Shown here: positions 44,134 through 63,400 of the stretch, piece after piece | Position numbering within the stretch: position 1 is the stretch's first letter | Layout: every line of letters starts with the position of its first letter | Virus record (IMG/VR): IMGVR_UViG_3300044825_001403 | Coordinates: 62,001-126,000 of that record | DNA: 64,000 nt | Direction: 5' to 3' (one strand) | DNA from: an uncultured virus (IMG/VR IMGVR_UViG_3300044825_001403) | Lineage: Duplodnaviria > Heunggongvirae > Uroviricota > Caudoviricetes | The notes under the pieces: model-generated | What the model saw: only the letters and a program-made list of their open reading frames with translations | Told to the model about the DNA's origin: nothing | Database searches by the model: none | Program-made: the position numbers and the translations under genes

Positions 44134-44220
44134 GGAGGGTCAAGCCGATAGGTGACGGCAGCTGTCTTGAAAACAGTCGAGGTGTTAAAGCCCTTAGGCG
44201 TTCGATTCGCCTACCCTCCG
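44134..44220 (+). tRNA. tRNA-Ser(UGA)
   Basis: Acceptor ggagggt/accctcc, anticodon arm gctgt-ctTGAaa-acagt, long variable arm, T arm with gttcgatt; CCA not encoded. Confidence 0.92.
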
Positions 44221-44224
44221 CTTC

Positions 44225-44297
44225 GGGGAATTAGCTCAGTTGGTAGAGCATCGCCTTTGCAAGGCGGGTGTCAGGAGTTCAAGTCTCCTATTCTCCA
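44225..44297 (+). tRNA. tRNA-Ala(UGC)
   Basis: Acceptor ggggaat/attctcc with G3:U70, anticodon loop ttTGCaa, T loop gttcaag. Confidence 0.95.
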
Positions 44298-44325
44298 TAA
44301 AAAATAAATAATAATAAAACCTTAA

Positions 44326-44538
44326 ATGAAAAGTTTTAAACAACTAAGACAAGAAGTAACTCAAGAGTTTTATCTTCAAAAAGAAATTTTTCAAGAAGGT
44401 GATTATATTATGAATGTTAATACTGGACAGAAAGGCAAAATTATTCGTCCAGGAGTTAATTATGTAATTGCTGTAACGGAAGATAATCAAATGTTTCGTG
44501 CTTGGGTAAAAGATATTCGTGAAGTAAACGTTTCCTAA
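44326..44538 (+). CDS. small late protein resembling the C-terminal domain of cyanophage cytidylyltransferase-like proteins
   Basis: EIFQEGD...N.NTG.KG.IIR.G.NYVI.VTED..MFRAWVKDI.E; upstream TAAATA; similarity recalled, not searched. Confidence 0.55.
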   Translation: MKSFKQLRQEVTQEFYLQKEIFQEGDYIMNVNTGQKGKIIRPGVNYVIAVTEDNQMFRAWVKDIREVNVS

Positions 44539-44575
44539 ACATAAATAAATTAAGGAAATCATATATACTTTACAA

Positions 44576-45487
44576 ATGGAACGACAAAGAGCAACGACCC
44601 AACTAGCACATTATGACGATTTTTCTAAAGCATTGATTGAGTCGTCAGTCAGATATCTTGGCGAAGAAGGAATTCCTTCATTGCAAAAGAAAGGTAATGA
44701 AGATGATTTCTCAAAGAAAGATCCTAAAGCAAAAGCAGCTCCTGCTGACCCAGCAATCAATATTGCTGCTGGCACTGGCACAAAACAATCTCATGGTGCA
44801 GAGATTGAATATACTACAGTTCGTGCCAAGAACGTACAGCGTGAAGAAGTAGAAAAGGAAGACGAGAGTAAAGCTGAAGAAGAAAAAGAAAAGAAGATGA
44901 GCAAGACTGCCAAGGAAAAGCATGAGAAGGCAGAAGACAAGAAAGAAAAGGAAATGAAGGAAACCTACGAGTTAGAACTGGATGGCAATACTTACATCTT
45001 TGAGAAAAAGATGGATGGTAAGGATGACAATGGTTTCACGTCATGTTGGAAAGGATACAAGAAAGTTGGCACCAAAATGAAGGGTGGCAAAGAAGTTAAT
45101 AATTGTGTTAAAGCAGGTTATGAACCAATTGGTGAATTAGTGCTTGATGAAAAAGCCCCCGCTGGGGCTAAGTTTGAAAGAATGGTTAAACATATTAAGA
45201 AGAGCTATTCTAAAGATGGTTTAACTGATAAAGAAAAGGGTATTGCTTACGCTACTGCATGGAAGCAAAAGAATAAAGAACAGAAAGAAGAGTTTGATTT
45301 AACTGAAAAGAAACTTGATGCAGTAGGAAAGGAAGATAAAGATATTGATAATGATGGTGATCATGATAAGTCAGATAAGTATCTTTTAAATCGTCGTAAA
45401 ACAGTAGGTAAAATTCTTGCTGCCAAGAAAAAAGTTAATGAAATGATTGCTTGGGAACAGGAGATTATCGCTGAAAAAAAGAACTGA
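44576..45487 (+). CDS. Lys/Glu-rich late protein, possibly head-internal; probable -1 frameshift extension to 45636
   Basis: 303 aa with CWKGY...G.K.K.GK.V.NCV, AYATAW and LDAVGKED.DIDNDGD.D.SD.YL.NRR modules; ends GAA AAA AAG AAC TGA. Confidence 0.7.
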   Translation: MERQRATTQLAHYDDFSKALIESSVRYLGEEGIPSLQKKGNEDDFSKKDPKAKAAPADPAINIAAGTGTKQSHGAEIEYTTVRAKNVQREEVEKEDESKAEEEKEKKMSKTAKEKHEKAEDKKEKEMKETYELELDGNTYIFEKKMDGKDDNGFTSCWKGYKKVGTKMKGGKEVNNCVKAGYEPIGELVLDEKAPAGAKFERMVKHIKKSYSKDGLTDKEKGIAYATAWKQKNKEQKEEFDLTEKKLDAVGKEDKDIDNDGDHDKSDKYLLNRRKTVGKILAAKKKVNEMIAWEQEIIAEKKN

Positions 45488-45646
45488 AGGCATCCACTGT
45501 AGAAGTGATGCCTGAAATTCCAAATAGTCCTGAAGACGGAGAAAGCTCTAAGAAGAATAAAAAGTACATCGGTAGAGCAGTAAACACACAGAAAAAAGAT
45601 AAGCTAAATATTACGGGGTCCCCTCGATCAATTTAGGAGCAAAATT

Positions 45647-45817
45647 ATGAAAGTATTTTTAGGCGTAGCACAAAAAGTTGTAGAGCATTTCATGGCTAGC
45701 CGTGAAGTCAAGGAGTTTGTTATTCATCTTCTTGAGCGTTATGCTGCAACAACCGACAATGATGTTGATAACATGGTTGTCGTAATGGTTAAGAAGGCTC
45801 TTCTTCGTGAAGAGTGA
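45647..45817 (+). CDS. small hypothetical protein (56 aa)
   Basis: MKVFLGVAQKVVEHFMASREVKEFVIHLLERYAATTDNDVDNMVV...; AGGAG RBS. Confidence 0.7.
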   Translation: MKVFLGVAQKVVEHFMASREVKEFVIHLLERYAATTDNDVDNMVVVMVKKALLREE

Positions 45818-45969
45818 TGGAATGTTTCTTAGGAAACATTTTAGCTGACATATTACTTTTACTTTTACTTGCCCTTTCCGAATGGATGGGGCACAATAAA
45901 AATATAAAAGAAAATAGTATCTACGATTGGATACATACTAAACTTAAAAAAATTGTAAGGGGAGACTAA
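45817..45969 (+). CDS. small membrane protein (50 aa)
   Basis: MECFLGNILADILLLLLLALSEWMG..K.IKENSIY; TGATG coupling. Confidence 0.6.
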   Translation: MECFLGNILADILLLLLLALSEWMGHNKNIKENSIYDWIHTKLKKIVRGD

Positions 45970-45983
45970 CTCCCCTTTTTTTA
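45958..45983 (+). terminator. terminator followed immediately by a TAAATA late promoter
   Basis: aggggag-actaa-ctcccct, T run, then ataaata. Confidence 0.75.
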
Positions 45984-46027
45984 TAAATATGTTTTAGATA
46001 ATAAAAGATAATTAAAAGAGGGAACCG

Positions 46028-47128
46028 ATGGCAATTCTCGGAAAATTAGATGCTAAAGCATTGGCTAATAATGTAGGTGTTGTTAATGGCGATGCTACTG
46101 TAACATTAGCTTCAGGAAGCTTTTTCAACAAAGCAACAGCCAATTACATTGTAGCTGGCGATATTCTTTCACTAAGCGGTGTCCAGTATGTAGTAAAAGC
46201 AGTTACTTCTGCAACTACTCTTGAATTACATAAAGCTTACGCTGGAAGCACTGCAACCATCACTGCAGCAAATGCTATTAGAAGAACTGCACCAAAGCAA
46301 GTTGCTCAATATGTTGTTGGTGGTGCTGATACAAATACAGGATCTCTTGTATTTTTAGACTCTGCTGAGGCACTATTAAATGAAAATAAAATTAGAGGTT
46401 TGACTGGCCCTGGTTGGTGGGTATATAAAACATATACTGATGCTTCTGGATCAACACGCCATAAGTCAGAGTGTATTGCCCCTCTTTATGTTAGTGCTGC
46501 TGTTGCTGGTGACTTTGCAGATAACCCTGCTGCTGACGTTGCTTCTGCTATTAGCATTTCTGTTCAACCTGCCAACCAATCAACAAGAACTCCTGCTGGT
46601 GCGTTCTTGACTGTAACTAGTGCGGGAACTGCTGCCACAGGAACAGGAACATATACAATTACTAATTCAACTGCTGGGGTAACTGTCACTAATGTTTCTG
46701 GTGGTGCTGCCCCAAGCGGAACATGGTCTGTTGGAGTTTCTAGAGCTGGTGGTGTATATACTGTAACAGTTAATTCTGGTGGTGCTGGATTTGCTGCTAC
46801 TGACACAATTTTAATTCCTGGAAGTGCATTGGGTGGTGTTGATACTACTAATGATCTTACAATTACTGTTGCTACTGTTGCTACCGCTGCAGCTACATTC
46901 TCTGTAACTGCTTCCGCAACAACTGGTTCACTCATTTATCAGTGGCAGCGTAGAACAAGCAGCACCGCTAAGTGGACTAATGTTTCTGGTGCTACTAGCT
47001 CTTCGCTTGCTCTTACAGCACTCACCACAGCTTCTACTGGTTATCAGTATCGTGTTAAGCTCACATCTTCTGCTGGTGCCGAAGAAGTTCTTTCTAATGC
47101 TGCAACCTTGACAGTAACTGCTGCATGA
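46028..47128 (+). CDS. virion surface protein with Ig-like domain (head/tail decoration)
   Basis: Ala/Thr/Gly-rich 366 aa; ISVQPANQ...ATFSVTA...YQWQ...W.NVSGAT...GYQYRV...SNAATLTV Ig-like motif; PGWW.YKTY.D..G..RHK.E motif. Confidence 0.7.
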   Translation: MAILGKLDAKALANNVGVVNGDATVTLASGSFFNKATANYIVAGDILSLSGVQYVVKAVTSATTLELHKAYAGSTATITAANAIRRTAPKQVAQYVVGGADTNTGSLVFLDSAEALLNENKIRGLTGPGWWVYKTYTDASGSTRHKSECIAPLYVSAAVAGDFADNPAADVASAISISVQPANQSTRTPAGAFLTVTSAGTAATGTGTYTITNSTAGVTVTNVSGGAAPSGTWSVGVSRAGGVYTVTVNSGGAGFAATDTILIPGSALGGVDTTNDLTITVATVATAAATFSVTASATTGSLIYQWQRRTSSTAKWTNVSGATSSSLALTALTTASTGYQYRVKLTSSAGAEEVLSNAATLTVTAA

Positions 47129-49625: not shown

Positions 49626-51934
49626 GTAACGGCATTAAAGTTCAAAAACGTGATGGCACTATTGAAGCTTTAAATCTAGATAAGATTCATCGTATGGTCG
49701 ATGAAGCTTGTGATGGACTTGCTGGAGTTTCTGCGTCTCAAGTAGAAATGAATTCTGGCATTCAATTCTATGATGGCATTACAACAGAAGAAATTCAAGA
49801 AATTCTAATTCGTTCTGCCAGTGATCTTATTTCACTGGACAATCCTAATTATCAATTTGTTGCGGCTCGTCTTCTTTTGTTCGCCTTACGCAAGCAAGTT
49901 TTCCACAAGAACATTTGGAAAGAAGGTATGCCCAGCATTTATGATGTGGCCCTATATAATTCAACTGTGCTGGGAGTATATGATGAAGAAATTCTTGACA
50001 AGTATACAGATGAAGATTGGACAAAGATTAACAGTTGGGTAGAGCACGATAGAGATTATCTTTTCTCCTATGCTGGTCTTCGCCAGGTAGTTGATAAGTA
50101 TCTTGTTCAAGACAGAAGCAGTGGAGAAATTTTTGAAACTCCACAGTATATGTACATGATGATTGCTTTGACCCTGTTTGCAGAGTATCCACTTTCAGTA
50201 CGATTGGATTACGTTCGCCGTTACTACAATGCCATCTCAAAGCACAAGATCAACATCCCCACGCCAATCATGGCGGGAGTCAGAACAACTCTTAGACAAT
50301 TCGCTAGTTGTGTTCTTATTGATTCTGATGACACCCTCAATAGCATCTTTAGCAGCGACATGGCTATTGGTCGCTACGTTGCTCAGAGGGCGGGTATTGG
50401 TATCAACGCTGGCAGAATCCGTGGAGTCAACAGTAAGATCCGAGGGGGAGAAGTTGCTCATACAGGGGTTATCCCATTCCTCAAAAAGTTTGAAGCAACT
50501 GTCAGATGCTGTACACAAAACGGGATTCGTGGTGGAAGTGCTACTGTCCACTTTCCAATCTGGCACCAAGAAATAGAAGACATTATTGTTCTTAAGAACA
50601 ATAAAGGCACAGAAGATAATCGAGTGCGTAAGCTTGATTACTCAATTCAAACTAGCAAATTGTTCTATGAGAGATTCATTCAAAACGGAGATATCACATT
50701 ATTCTCACCTCACGATGTTCCTGGTCTTAATGATGCTTTTGGTACTCCCGATTTCGATGACCTATATAAGCGTTATGAGTCTGATGATTCAATTCCCAAA
50801 AAACGAGTTAGTGCCCAGGAATTAACCCTTTCTCTACTCAAAGAACGTGCAGAAACTGGTCGTGTTTATATTATGAATATCGACCATTGTAATTCACACT
50901 CTTCTTTCCTAGATAAAGTTTGGATGAGTAATCTCTGTCAAGAAATCACACTTCCCACAGATCCTATTCAACACATTGACGGTGATGGTGAAATTGCTCT
51001 TTGTATTCTTTCTGCTATCAATGTAGGCAAACTCAAGAATCTTGATGATCTTGAAGAACTATGTGATCTTTCTGTTCGTGGTCTTGAAGAGTTAATTGAT
51101 TATCAAAACTATCCCGTGAAAGCAGCTGAGATTTCTACAATTAATCGTCGTTCACTTGGAGTTGGCTATATTGGCTTAGCTCATTATCTAGCAAAACATG
51201 GAGTAAAATATGACGACCCAACCGCTTGGAAACTCGTCCACGACCTTACTGAAGCTTTCCAGTTCTATCTGCTCAAGTCATCAAACACCATCGCCAAAGA
51301 GAAAGGAGCATGTGGATATTTTAATCGAACGAAGTATTCAGACGGTATTCTCCCAATCGACACTTATAAAAAAGACGTAGACGAAATTGTACCTAATAAT
51401 TTAAATTATGATTGGGAGACTTTACGTTCCGAGATTCAAACATATGGACTACGACATTCAACGTTGTCCGCACAAATGCCTTCGGAAAGCAGTTCCGTTG
51501 TGTCAAATGCCACAAATGGAATTGAGCCGCCTAGAGATTACTTGTCCGTTAAGAAATCAAAGAAAGGACCTCTTAAGCAGATTGTCCCCAGTTATCAAAC
51601 TCTCAAAAATGCTTATACGCTTCTTTGGGATATGCCTAACAATACTGGTTATATCAATATTGTTGCTGTTATGCAGAAGTTCTTTGATCAAGCGATTTCT
51701 GGAAACTGGTCGTATAATCCAGAGAATTATGCCGATAATGAAGTTCCTACTTCGGTAATGGCTCAAGACTTCCTCAATACTTATAAGTATGGATGGAAAA
51801 CTTCTTACTATCAAAATACATATGATGCTAAGAAGGATGAAGTTACCGAAGATCGACGCCAGCAAGATGTCGAAGATATGCTCAATGATTTGTTAAACCT
51901 ACAGGAGGACGATTGTGACAGTTGTAAAATTTAA
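49622..51934 (+). CDS. nrdA: class I ribonucleotide reductase alpha subunit
   Basis: ATP cone (VQKRDG), PTPIMAG, QFASC, SNLCQEI, MPSESSS, C-terminal CDSC. Confidence 0.97.
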   Translation: MSNGIKVQKRDGTIEALNLDKIHRMVDEACDGLAGVSASQVEMNSGIQFYDGITTEEIQEILIRSASDLISLDNPNYQFVAARLLLFALRKQVFHKNIWKEGMPSIYDVALYNSTVLGVYDEEILDKYTDEDWTKINSWVEHDRDYLFSYAGLRQVVDKYLVQDRSSGEIFETPQYMYMMIALTLFAEYPLSVRLDYVRRYYNAISKHKINIPTPIMAGVRTTLRQFASCVLIDSDDTLNSIFSSDMAIGRYVAQRAGIGINAGRIRGVNSKIRGGEVAHTGVIPFLKKFEATVRCCTQNGIRGGSATVHFPIWHQEIEDIIVLKNNKGTEDNRVRKLDYSIQTSKLFYERFIQNGDITLFSPHDVPGLNDAFGTPDFDDLYKRYESDDSIPKKRVSAQELTLSLLKERAETGRVYIMNIDHCNSHSSFLDKVWMSNLCQEITLPTDPIQHIDGDGEIALCILSAINVGKLKNLDDLEELCDLSVRGLEELIDYQNYPVKAAEISTINRRSLGVGYIGLAHYLAKHGVKYDDPTAWKLVHDLTEAFQFYLLKSSNTIAKEKGACGYFNRTKYSDGILPIDTYKKDVDEIVPNNLNYDWETLRSEIQTYGLRHSTLSAQMPSESSSVVSNATNGIEPPRDYLSVKKSKKGPLKQIVPSYQTLKNAYTLLWDMPNNTGYINIVAVMQKFFDQAISGNWSYNPENYADNEVPTSVMAQDFLNTYKYGWKTSYYQNTYDAKKDEVTEDRRQQDVEDMLNDLLNLQEDDCDSCKI

Positions 51935-53138: not shown

Positions 53139-53477
53139 ATGAAAGTGCAATCAGCAAAAGCGAAAGGTCGCCGTCTTCAACAATGGGTTCGTGATAAACT
53201 TATCGAAATGCTTGATGTCCATCCTGAAGATATTGAAAGTAGATCTATGGGTGCTGGTGGGGAAGATTTAATTATGGCACGAGCTGCCAGACAAAAGTTT
53301 CCTCACAGCATTGAATGTAAAAATGTAGAAAAGTTAAATGTTTGGGAAGCATATGAACAAGCCCAAGCAAACTCAGGTGATTATGAACCAGTCCTTGTCA
53401 TGAAAAAGAATGGCAAAAAGCCATTGGTTGTAGTAGATGCCGAGTATTACATTCAACTTCACGGAGAAAAACAATGA
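53139..53477 (+). CDS. PD-(D/E)XK Holliday-junction-resolvase-like nuclease
   Basis: SAKAKGRRLQQ...GEDL...SIECKN...W..YEQA. Confidence 0.7.
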   Translation: MKVQSAKAKGRRLQQWVRDKLIEMLDVHPEDIESRSMGAGGEDLIMARAARQKFPHSIECKNVEKLNVWEAYEQAQANSGDYEPVLVMKKNGKKPLVVVDAEYYIQLHGEKQ

Positions 53478-54178
53478 AAATTACTTTACAAAATTTCTTT
53501 GAACACTTTGATAAGAATAATCCGAATCATGTAAAAGCAGTACAAATGTTTCTACATGCCCTAGAAAAAGCAGCACCAGAAGAACTAGAAGATACTTCTG
53601 GCTGGGTCAAAACATTCAGAACACCTGTTCAAAAACAAGCAACAAATATTTTAGAAAACTTTCCTTGGTTTCCTCAGACAGACAACTACAGGGATGCACA
53701 AAGAACTTGTAATAGTTCTGCCTGTGCTATGTGCTTAGAATATTTAAAGCCAGGTACACTCAAAGGACCTAAAGGTGATGATGCTTATGTTCAAAAAGTA
53801 TTTGCTATAGGTGATACCACTGACCACACGGTTCAAACTCGTGTGTTGATGTCTTATGGTATTAATTCTGCTTTTAGATATAACTTAACATTTGATGAAC
53901 TCGATAAGCAACTTGCAGCCAAGCGTCCAGTTGTTATTGGAATCCTTCACAGGGGAACCCTAGCAGCCCCTACAGGAGGCCATATGGTTGTTGTGATTGG
54001 GAAGACGCCCGCAGGCGATTACATCGTTCACGACCCTTATGGCAGCCTTAACGACGGTTATACAGGACCTGTTACAAATGGCAGGGGTGCGGTGTATAAG
54101 CGTAGCGATCTTGTGCGTAGATGGTGTCCTGCAGGAAATGATGGTTGGGGTAGAGTTTTTGATGCTGTAAAAAAGTAG
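53474..54178 (+). CDS. C39-like (papain-fold) peptidase, putative cell-wall hydrolase
   Basis: PWFPQTDN...RTCNSSACAM (catalytic Cys), GGHMVVVIG (His), IVHDPYG (Asp). Confidence 0.8.
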   Translation: MKITLQNFFEHFDKNNPNHVKAVQMFLHALEKAAPEELEDTSGWVKTFRTPVQKQATNILENFPWFPQTDNYRDAQRTCNSSACAMCLEYLKPGTLKGPKGDDAYVQKVFAIGDTTDHTVQTRVLMSYGINSAFRYNLTFDELDKQLAAKRPVVIGILHRGTLAAPTGGHMVVVIGKTPAGDYIVHDPYGSLNDGYTGPVTNGRGAVYKRSDLVRRWCPAGNDGWGRVFDAVKK

Positions 54179-54651
54179 AAAGTTCTATCCCTCAAGCTGG
54201 GATAGAACTTATACGTGAGTTTGAAGGATGTCATTTACATGCCTATCCAGACCCAAAAACTGGCGGACCTCCTATTACAATTGGATGGGGAAGTACTAAA
54301 GATTTTAATGGTCAATCATTTAAAATGGGAAGGACAATAACACGAGAATATGCTGATAAACTTTTAGAATTTGATATTAAAAACAGATTCCTTCCTTATC
54401 TAGAAAAAATTCCTTATTGGGGAGAAATGAATGACAATCAACGGGGAGCACTTCTCAGCTTTGCTTATAATCTCGGTGCTGGCTTTTATGGCGGAGTTGG
54501 TTTTAATACTATCTCTCGCAATTTACGTGAGAAAGATTGGTTATCAATCCCAAAAACATTAGAATTGTATCGTGATCCTGGCACTAACGTAGAAGCAGGA
54601 TTACTGAGGAGAAGGAGAAGAGAAGGTTCTTTGTGGTTAGGAATAGGGTAA
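54175..54651 (+). CDS. GH24 phage lysozyme domain, reachable by -1 frameshift from the upstream peptidase
   Basis: -1 frame reads VESSIPQAGIELIREFEGCHLHAYPDPKTGGPPITIGWGST...ALLSFAYNLG...GLLRRRRREG.LW; the first ATG (54325) lies downstream of the catalytic E/D/T segment. Confidence 0.85.
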   Translation, partial: VESSIPQAGIELIREFEGCHLHAYPDPKTGGPPITIGWGSTKDFNGQSFKMGRTITREYADKLLEFDIKNRFLPYLEKIPYWGEMNDNQRGALLSFAYNLGAGFYGGVGFNTISRNLREKDWLSIPKTLELYRDPGTNVEAGLLRRRRREGSLWLGIG

Positions 54652-60432: not shown

Positions 60433-63400
60433 ATGTCTAGACTAAGAGCTGATAGAGTTGTCAACAAAAATGCAAATGGTCCTTTTGAAGCAAGTGAAGG
60501 TATTAAAATACCATTAAATAAATCAATTACTATTGGAACTGATAGTGGTAGCACTGGGGACTTTTTAAAAAAATTAGGTAATAGTTTAGAATGGGGTAGT
60601 ATTCCTCCCGCATCTCAAGCAGAACTTGGATTAGTTTATATTGGATCTGGATTAAATGTAGATGAAAACGGATTACTTACCACGCAATTTGATGGCACTC
60701 TTGGTGATTTGCAAGATGTTGATATAACTACAGATCCTCCAGTTATAGGGCAAGTTTTAAAATGGAATGGTACTAAATGGGTTCCTAATACAGATGCAGT
60801 TTTTTCTGGAGACTATCTAGACTTAATCAATTTACCCGAATTAACTTTAAATGCTATAACTGAAAATGGTAATGCCACGTTGAATGAAATTCTTATTGGT
60901 GGGTTGGGAGTTTATGATCCTACTAATACAGATAGAAATAGTTTTTATGAATGGAGCGGTGATACTTATAATCAATATATTGAGACATTAACTAATCTAG
61001 GTAAATATAATATTACCATTGATGGTAATACAATTCTTTATGTTCATACCAAATCTGGGGATAATAATCCAGGTGTTGGAATCAATAAAGTTCCTGCGTT
61101 TAAAGGTCTTGATGTAGCAGGTAATTTTGGATTGAATGGTAGTATTCATATTAATGAAAGTATTAGATATGTACAATCATTGGTTCCAGAATCTACTGCT
61201 ACCAATATCGATTTAGGATCAACTACTAGATTGTGGAGATCTGGATATTTTCAAACTAGTGTATTGATTGGTTCTGGCACAGATACTGGAACAGCCAATC
61301 AAAAACTTCAAGTTACTGGTGGTGCTTATGTTTCTGATAATGTAGGTATAGGATACACAGCACCAACAGATAAGTTGGCAGTTAATGGCAATGAATATGT
61401 TAATGGAAACATTACTTTAACTGGCGAACTTCGTGGTCCTTCTGTATTTGTAATTGATCCAGCGGTAGTTGGAAACAATACAGGAACAGTTCAAATTAAA
61501 GGTGATCTTCAAGTTGATGGAACGACCACCACAATTAATTCTACGATTACAAGTATTGCTGACCCTATCGTAGAACTAAGAAGAGGCAATTCTTTATTAG
61601 GTGCTGATGGTGGCATTCAAGTTAACTTAACGACCAATGGCACTGGCACTGTTACTTCATACCAGAGAGTACAATGGAACAATAGCAATACTCGCTGGGA
61701 AACAACTGACGGCACTACACCAAAACCAATTGTTAATACTGTAGATAACTTTACTGTTGGTGGTACATTTACTTTTAACAATAACGTCACTTTTGGTGAC
61801 GTAGTAACTGACACTATTACAGTAAACTCACAGTTTGTAAATGGAACTAAGCTTAGAACTGCACAAAATATAAGCAACACTCTTGCATTGGCAGCATATG
61901 ATGTTGATGGAACATCCTATACAGATTTAATTACATTAACTGCATCTAATACACCAACACTAACACTGGTTTCTACTGGAGTTGGTTCTATTAACAACAT
62001 GAACATCGGTGCTACTACAAGAGCTACTGGTGCGTTCACAACTCTAGATGCTAATAGCACAACAACGATCAATCCAGCAAACGCTAACGTATCTATTACT
62101 CCTTCTGGAACTGGAGTTTTAACAATTTCTTCTGGTGCAGTTGGTTCAATTAATAATGTAAATATCGGTGCCACCACTAGAGGCACTGGTGCTTTCACAA
62201 CTCTAGATGCTAACGGTACTGTTATTCTGGGAGATGCTTCTGCAGATACAGTTACTGTAAATGGAACTTCTACGTTTAATGCTGATGTTACCTTAAATAC
62301 TAATCTTACTATAGGAAATGCTGATACTGATACAGTCACTATTTCTTCTCAATTTGCTGCAAGTACCCAACTTAAAACTTCCAAGGGAACAAATGAAACA
62401 TTAAATATTGCAGCTTATGATGTAGATGGAACTGCGTATACTAATTTAATTACTTTAACTGCAGCGAATAATCCTTTACTAACAATTAGTTCTGTTGCTA
62501 CAGGTACAATTAATAACATGAGCATCGGTGCATCTACTAGAAGCACTGGTGCTTTTACTACATTGCAAGCAAATAGCACCACCACAATTAACCCAGCAAA
62601 CGCTAACGTATCTATTACTCCTTCAGGAACTGGGGTTTTAACTATTTCTTCTGGTGCTGTAGGTGCTATTGACAATGTAAATATCGGTGCCAGCACTAGA
62701 GGTACTGGTGCATTTACAACATTAAATGCTAATGGTGATGTTACTCTCGGTGATGCATCAACTGATAACGTAACAGTAAATGCAACTTCCACATTCAATT
62801 CTAGCGTTACTTTATCTGGTGTAACTTCTAATTTAATTGTTGGAGGTGAACTTCGTGGTCCTTCTGTATTTGTAATTGATCCTGCTGTTGTTGGTGATGA
62901 TACAGGTCTTGTCAGAATTAAAGGTAATCTTGAAGTTCTTGGTACAACCACAACTATTAACTCAACAGTAACTACAATTGCAGATCCTTTCCTTGAACTT
63001 CGTAGAGGTAATTCTTTAACCGCTGCGGATGGTGGTATTCAAGTTAATTTAACTACAGACGGTTCGGGAAATGTTACTTCATCTCAAACTATTCAATGGA
63101 ATAATTCTTCATTGAGATGGGAAACTACCGATGGTACTACTGCAAAACCAATCGTTAATACAGTAGATAGTTTTACATTTGCGAGTTCTATTTCTTTTGA
63201 TGCAAACGTAACATTAGGCAATGCTGTATCTGATACGATTACTGTAAACTCACAGTTTGTAAATGGAACTCAATTTAGATCTTCGCAATCAAATGGCAAC
63301 ACACTTGCAATTGCTGCATATGATTTAGATGGAACTACTTATACTAATTTAATTACATTAACTGCATCTAATACTCCAACATTAACATTAGTTTCTACTG

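Follow-up and report, generated by a model that had tools for sequence, protein, structure and literature searches.

A probable programmed -1 ribosomal frameshift with a dnaX-type cassette in a modular gene of T4-like cyanophages

The window analysed here is a 64,000-nt stretch (positions 62,001 to 126,000) of IMG/VR record IMGVR_UViG_3300044825_001403, the 127,664-nt record of a T4-like cyanomyovirus. Within it, an open reading frame (ORF) of 303 codons closes on the slippery heptamer A_AAA_AAG, which is preceded by an internal Shine-Dalgarno (SD)-like element, followed by a predicted hairpin, and succeeded in the -1 frame by 51 further codons (Table 1). The arrangement is best read as a programmed -1 ribosomal frameshift, and on comparative grounds we hold this reading to be highly probable. 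The initial annotation of this DNA had proposed a dnaX-type cassette giving short and long isoforms; a 303-aa and a 353-aa isoform of this kind are strongly backed by comparison with related phages. That shifting occurs, how efficient it would be and what the added tail would do are points that we infer.

The zero frame of the 303-codon ORF ends GAA AAA AAG AAC TGA, which places the heptamer in X_XXY_YYZ phase and the stop one codon past it. The -1 frame opens exactly at the heptamer, because TGA at 45472-74 closes it just upstream. Read from 45475, it encodes 53 residues (KK + 51) up to its TAG, and the computed trans-frame product is 353 aa long. The next ORF begins at 45647, so that the extension fills the intergenic gap, as the initial annotation had said. 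Direct reading of the sequence returned all the coordinates that had been given for AGGAG, heptamer, one-codon stop and TAG, and the bulged downstream hairpin was recovered by folding, with 10 pairs and a 6-nt spacer. In a 79-nt fold the hairpin reached a dG of -17.3 kcal/mol (z -2.50), with 3 of 200 shuffles folding as well; in a 48-nt fold the values were -13.4 and z -3.6. A search of Rfam with 45300-45800 at E <= 1 returned no family.

In-phase A_AAA_AAG was counted in ORFs of at least 100 aa and was found only 7 times in the whole window. Five AAAAAAG runs with a stop within two codons were found in the 127,664-nt record, and only two of the five, at 45475 and 54169, have both a long zero-frame ORF before them and a long -1 ORF after them. 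A third AAAAAAG with a stop, at 51368, was dropped as a spurious frame inside a 770-aa reductase ORF.

Sequencing runs were compared as assembled contigs, which drop rare variants; runs X9 and X10 had no cover over the junction. A DNA contig assembled independently from run X4 (record 9) covers 45112-45587 gap-free, and the frame break is thus no assembly slip. A contig from an RNA library, which may contain DNA, spans 45391-45552 with 15 substitutions, no indels and the heptamer kept; it is no sign of transcription and leaves room for rare A insertions.

Conservation was assessed in sets of 56-60 distinct junctions (58 in the start-codon survey), taken from among the matches listed after removal of duplicates. 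The motif searches required the ATG of a downstream VEVMP motif, which is hence present in every collected sequence. In the heptamer-filtered set, all 56 distinct junctions carry an in-phase A_AAA_AAG with the zero-frame stop 0-1 codon on; clustering gives 14 groups at 80% identity and 8 at 70%. When only the upstream protein was used as query, 18 IMG/VR loci matched to residue 290 or beyond, and 16 of them have the in-phase heptamer, a stop 0-1 codon later and a VEVMP ORF in the -1 frame (the exceptions are L015 and L024). A DNA scan for the downstream motif, in which the heptamer was not required, returned 118 stretches among the matches listed: 63 have heptamer and stop, 53 encode unrelated proteins, and 2 (L137 and L179) are relatives with the motif in frame within a longer ORF. 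The codon that supplies the first A of the heptamer is GAA in 50 junctions, TCA in 2, GGA in 2, GCA in 1 and ACA in 1 (n = 56); its amino acid varies and its wobble A is constant. Upstream coding sequence uses both lysine codons (AAA 699, AAG 1026) and has NNA codons at 27%, so that synonymous drift would be expected to break the heptamer if the protein alone mattered. The cassette is present in nine of ten cultured phages, namely S-PM2, S-RIM32 (putative identity), S-CAM1, S-CAM3, Sf-FR1, Syn1, S-H9-2, Sf-CH11 and Sf-CH3, and is absent from S-CAM4.

Both proposed flanking stimulators recur in most junctions, the SD-like GGAG at 7-11 nt upstream and the hairpin at 6-7 nt downstream. GGAG or GAGG lies within -22..-4 of the heptamer in 82% of the 56 junctions, against 4.4% of background windows from upstream coding sequence. 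AGGAG or GGAG stands exactly 11 nt upstream in 34 of the 56, S-PM2-type junctions have GGAGG 7 nt upstream, and 8 of the 56 are without an SD-like element. On the downstream side, the minimum free energy stem of 48-nt folds begins 6-7 nt past the heptamer in 37 of the 56 junctions (median dG -13.75 kcal/mol, median z -2.3). Clades have different stems: the window-type stem pairs GGCAUCC.ACU with the V-M-P codons, the S-CAM3-type stem is an extended hairpin of roughly 42 nt, and junctions with a CxC insert keep the spacer with stems of unrelated sequence, GGCTTG/CAAGCC (S-CAM1 type) or GGAGTGTCC/GGACACTCC (L113 type). For the extended hairpin of the 21-nt class (28 sequences), 79.3% of cells were paired, compared with 29-59% when the partner was slid; the covariation score was 0.213, a value reached in 0 of 500 shuffles, and four pairs had changed on both sides.

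The extension itself is conserved coding sequence. The 53-aa -1-frame peptide matches phrog_11250 (E 6.7e-10), which answers the conservation check proposed for the -1 ORF, and the upstream protein matches PHROG 4359; both families are without assigned function. Translation from the internal GTG/ATG alone had been named as an outcome that would count against the frameshift. The residues upstream of these codons are conserved too, even in relatives without a start there: the pattern K-x-A/P-x-(T/S)-V-E-V is kept ahead of the conserved ATG, with a CxC motif in the insertion types, and the corresponding peptide in the window phage is ASTVEVMPEIPNSPEDGESSK. Third-position changes in this pre-ATG stretch are synonymous in the 27-nt class (CCT/CCC, ACT/ACC, GTC/GTT/GTA), and the CxC insert is homologous to L015 sequence that is certainly translated. 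The conserved tail motifs are VEVMPEI and a lysine-rich KKxKKY. No longer protein containing the extension was found at E <= 0.001, which that search itself rated as weak evidence.

Natural variants of the locus bear on the same question. In the L179 record, a single ORF of 281 codons occupies the syntenic place, ahead of the same small ORF, virion-structural gene and DUF7207 gene; aligned with the trans-frame product of the window, it gives one high-scoring segment pair that spans the junction (E 7e-41). The heptamer is missing from the relatives L015 (record L203), L024, L030 and S-CAM4 (L288 1570-1720), which have an upstream gene ending KKS*, GKK* or KKK* and a downstream ORF with its ATG over that stop. 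This downstream ORF has its own MKSFKxF N-terminal module ahead of the CxC and VEVMP motifs, a module that also heads the 70-aa ORF at 44326 in the window, and these four represent a true separate-gene form. The distribution is complementary, as frameshifting predicts: junctions with the slip site have no reliable start or N-terminal module for the downstream part, and those without it have the two parts either fused or as properly separate genes.

The content of the -1 ORF also varies. It measures 42-57 aa here, 97 aa with DUF3008 (E 7e-6) in S-PM2 (L001 2404-2697), and 65-86 aa with a DUF6321-like module in other relatives (L287 and L289 among those compared). The window has its DUF6321-like module in the zero-frame body, at about residues 193-232, and the APPGKKYERMVKHIKK module, carried by the -1 ORF in some relatives, likewise lies in the zero-frame body there. 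Members of the family are built mosaic-like from short modules: a DxDxDG loop, which resembles EF-hand and dockerin loops at sub-threshold scores, a CWKGYK...NCV loop, the DUF6321-like module and DUF3008. From the whole modules carried by -1 ORFs in relatives, it is proposed that the slip would append an optional module to a fraction of the molecules. Single-ORF relatives with VEVMPEI in frame were also seen at L204 1300-2145 (-) and L205 1492-2052 (-), one being the syntenic 281-aa protein and the other a 186-aa protein with an MKTFYQLRQE head of 18 residues before the motif; such motifs act like shuffled modules. Searches of Pfam with the 303-aa protein and with the extension gave no family, and a threshold raised to E 5 gave one chance-level match; the 303-aa protein looks low-complexity.

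The proposed course of events is as follows. Ribosomes translating the 303-codon gene would reach A_AAA_AAG with Lys-tRNAs on AAA and AAG, at which point AGGAG, 11 nt behind, would pair with 16S rRNA and the hairpin, 6 nt ahead, would be placed at the mRNA entry channel. A fraction of the ribosomes would then move back one base, with both tRNAs re-pairing on AAA AAA, would bypass the TGA one codon on and would read 51 more codons in the -1 frame. The long 353-aa isoform would be made in this way beside the 303-aa product.

Alternatively, the two frames may be two translationally coupled genes: termination at the zero-frame TGA would unwind a hairpin that hides the start, and reinitiation at GTG 45505, at ATG 45508 or at the near-cognate CTG 45484 over the stop would give an independent peptide of 42-50 aa. 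We consider this unlikely. It agrees with the GenBank relatives, where the extension is annotated as a separate small hypothetical gene (S-PM2, S-CAM1, S-CAM3, Sf-FR1, Syn1, S-H9-2 and Sf-CH11) and where all nine records with the heptamer annotate two genes and no joined coding sequence; but the annotators disagree on the start: the small gene begins at the GTG over the stop for S-CAM1 and S-CAM3, at an internal GTG for S-PM2 and Syn1, and at the VEVMP ATG for Sf-FR1, S-H9-2 and Sf-CH11. Coupling would also account for the ATG inside the hairpin, as in classic unfolding-dependent coupling, and for the clear ATGA-overlap start of the homologous ORF in L015, L024, L030 and S-CAM4; those separate-gene forms, however, bear an extra N-terminal module that the heptamer forms are without, and a syntenic single-ORF form exists. 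Among the 58 junctions of the start-codon survey (zero-frame stop TGA in 34, TAA in 24), the -1 codon over the stop is GTG in 31, GTA in 23, and CTG, TTG, ATG and ATA in one each. GTG, ATG or TTG is therefore available at 33 of 58, and a VEVMP ATG at all of them, though the latter was required by the search. Against this, a canonical start overlapping or adjoining the stop is not conserved among the relatives, GTA, CTG or ATA standing there in 25 of 58 and CTG in the window. In 8 of 58 no ATG, GTG or TTG precedes the conserved ATG (in 11 more the only one is a GTG adjoining it), yet the residues before it are conserved, including the CxC motif. Coupling leaves unexplained the invariant phase-locked A_AAA_AAG, the fixed wobble A, the upstream GGAG and the fixed 6-7-nt spacer. 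Fusion and separate peptide may coexist in some phages.

Two further explanations concern the run of A residues. RNA polymerase might add an A within the A7 run, so that the fusion would be encoded in a single frame by some mRNAs; slippage is known to occur at homopolymeric A runs (PMC5009743, available text), and 50 of the 56 junctions have seven A. The remaining 6 have only six A with the heptamer phase kept, and the fixed phase, the terminal G, the SD 11 nt upstream and the hairpin 6-7 nt downstream would all be unneeded. The RNA-library contig, being free of indels, also speaks weakly against such slippage, given that contigs drop rare variants and that the library possibly holds DNA. We regard transcriptional slippage as very improbable. 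A continuous ORF broken by a 1-nt deletion, through sequencing or assembly error or in a decaying gene, would fit the error-prone nature of homopolymer runs and the existence of a single-ORF relative, but 56-60 distinct junctions, drawn from many assemblies, share the identical break, as do nine isolate genomes, the S-PM2 record included; the independent DNA contig is gapless at the site, and both frames are still conserved. Its probability is negligible, and assembly error is excluded.

Several points weigh against programmed frameshifting at this locus. The support for it is wholly comparative. The junction sets used for the heptamer, fold and start counts were pre-filtered on heptamer and motif, and the loci are mutually related, so that the counts are not independent events. 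With a possible start over the stop at 33 of 58 junctions and a VEVMP ATG in every collected sequence, as the searches required, coupled reinitiation could yield a separate small protein in many phages, and L015 and S-CAM4, as separate-gene forms, show the downstream module to be capable of working alone. Folding is weak in S-PM2-type junctions (z 0 to -1.5). For the 24/27-nt spacing classes RNAalifold gave no shared stem, since the inner stems lie in different registers, and this set was judged from per-sequence folds. The 3' arm consists of conserved V-M-P codons, so the pairing may partly follow protein constraint. Codon-position entropy before the motif is weakly periodic (0.76, 0.56, 0.87), which makes this measure weak support in so short a stretch. 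The record encodes five tRNAs, none of them for Lys.

A second candidate site was found in the window at 54169, and it is probably the first site that the initial annotation implied in calling the present one the second. There, an ORF at 53474-54178 with a Peptidase_C39_2 domain (E 2e-10) ends on A_AAA_AAG with TAG immediately next, a 12-bp hairpin (-18.6 kcal/mol) starts 4 nt on, and a phage lysozyme of 160 aa (E 2.1e-21) is encoded in the -1 frame. Among 56 distinct junctions of relatives, the heptamer stands directly before the stop in 33 and one codon earlier in 8, and each of these 41 has the lysozyme as its -1 frame; heptamer and lysozyme are both missing from 11, and 3 have the heptamer with a negative lysozyme motif check. 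The remaining one, L278, has the two parts fused in frame in 395 codons, and its junction has the sequence expected of the slip product.

Taken more widely, T4-like cyanophages might link shuffled modules through one portable cassette of general use, composed of A_AAA_AAG, an adjacent stop and a hairpin 4-7 nt on, in at least two unrelated genes of one genome, with the shared Lys-tRNA decoding letting the translational state of the host set the isoform ratios jointly; we offer this as a speculative proposal of low probability. The host state concerned may be tRNA-Lys modification, lysine supply or energy state. If the frameshift is real, a widespread ocean and lake cyanophage family makes a fusion protein that is now split into two hypothetical genes with inconsistent starts, and gene catalogues, core-gene counts and proteomic search databases miss the product, including in the laboratory models S-PM2 and Syn1. 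It would also be a well-conserved bacterial-virus -1 frameshift beyond the tail-chaperone and transposase cases, and together with the peptidase-lysozyme site it points to recoding as a regular device of this phage family. The locus offers natural variation in all three signals as well as natural fused and unfused controls, and frameshifting is directly testable in culturable phage-host pairs.

The frameshift gene follows uvsX, gp41, MazG and tRNA genes and precedes a virion-structural gene; its neighbours comprise uvsX-like, gp41-like helicase and MazG genes, two tRNAs, several small ORFs, a head/virion-structural gene and a primase-like gene. Syntenic homologues of the 303-aa gene are found in S-PM2, S-CAM1, S-CAM3, Sf-FR1, Syn1 and others. 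The initial annotation had called the product a late protein, possibly head-internal, and neither description is supported. The only hint of lateness is CATAAATA at 44540-47, which resembles a T4-type late promoter; exact copies of the late-promoter consensus TATAAATA number 4 in the window, as many as chance would give, and none stands before the 303-aa gene. As to a head-internal location, the protein has no Pfam family and its PHROG families have no assigned function.

Just upstream, at window 44326-44538, the 70-aa ORF starting MKSFKQLRQE matches phrog_4808, which is labelled 'ribonucleotide reductase alpha subunit', and its GenBank relatives are variously named NrdB, ribonucleotide reductase (RNR) alpha or 'possible cytidyltransferase'. 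On proteins of 70-90 aa, these RNR and cytidyltransferase names look like inherited mis-annotation. The sequencing runs that contain window 44300-46100 are labelled as freshwater or lake metagenomes and the named relatives are marine Synechococcus phages; the window phage may come from a freshwater lineage within the family.

Table 1. Features of the frameshift locus and its surroundings, with positions in the window.
Feature	Position	Strand	Details
Zero-frame gene, proposed short isoform, 303 aa, Lys/Glu-rich modular protein	44576..45487	+	ORF list; stop TGA 45485-87; phrog_4359 E 4.3e-67
Internal SD-like AGGAG	45459..45463	+	11 nt before heptamer
Slippery heptamer A_AAA_AAG	45475..45481	+	zero-frame phase
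Stimulatory hairpin (predicted)	45488..45513	+	10 bp, one bulged C, 5-nt loop, 6-nt spacer after heptamer
-1-frame extension, 51 codons + TAG 45634-36	45481..45636	+	phrog_11250 E 6.7e-10; long isoform would be 353 aa
GTG-ATG pair within hairpin 3' arm	45505..45510	+	start if the extension were a separate gene (42-43 aa); ORF 45505-45636; ATG stem-paired
Intrinsic terminator-like hairpin + T run, end of transcription unit	45957..45985	+	context
tRNA-Ser(TGA) and tRNA-Ala(TGC)	44134-44297		just upstream of gene cluster
Second -1 frameshift candidate	53474-54651		heptamer 54169-54175, stop TAG 54176-78, hairpin 54180-54210

In the orfA-orfB pair of IS911/IS3 elements, A_AAA_AAG lies near the end of the upstream ORF and a trans-frame fusion is made beside the short product. 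The present locus is alike in the position of the heptamer, in the upstream SD-like element and downstream structure, and in a fusion predicted beside a short product. Unlike IS911, it contains no mobile element or transposase, has a simple hairpin rather than a three-way junction, and in most relatives has the zero-frame stop directly adjoining the heptamer. The stimulators of IS911 act in synergy, and a 3' structure has been described for it (PMC5009743, available text). Lambda G/GT makes a minor, C-terminally extended fusion at a fixed ratio, the -1 shift taking place close to a gene's 3' end (PMC5009743, available text). This tail assembly chaperone pair shares with our locus its place in a double-stranded DNA phage and a slip site near the 3' end, whereas the heptamer differs, no similarity to chaperone families is seen, and the gene does not lie between tail tube and tape-measure genes, the position that marks G/GT. 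Coupled phage genes of the ATGA/GTGA kind also have a downstream frame that is -1 to the upstream one and overlaps its stop, but the overlap codon in the window is CTG and the family conserves the slip site, not a start codon. No report of a frameshift in a cyanophage or cyanomyovirus, or under the S-PM2 gene names, was found in full-text literature outside subscription papers and supplements, and the available text of the 2016 recoding review (PMC5009743) does not mention cyanophage, Synechococcus, Prochlorococcus or T4-like.

The closest likeness is to Escherichia coli dnaX (tau/gamma). A_AAA_AAG is highly shifty in E. coli, where a single tRNA-Lys(UUU) decodes both AAA and AAG (PMC5009743, available text). 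According to the available text of PMC4344849, dnaX has an SD 10 nt upstream of the slip site and an 11-bp hairpin 6 nt downstream, and shifts with an efficiency of up to 80%. The heptamer is identical here, the SD-like element lies at 11 nt rather than about 10, and the hairpin, also 6 nt on, has 10 bp rather than 11. The outcome differs: shifted ribosomes on dnaX meet a stop after one codon and give a shorter product, whereas here the shift would give a longer one, with the zero-frame stop 0-1 codon on. The proteins are unrelated; no homology to DnaX (DNA polymerase III tau/gamma) was seen, the Pfam search having returned no family. By analogy, then, this locus would work like dnaX without being a member of the dnaX family.

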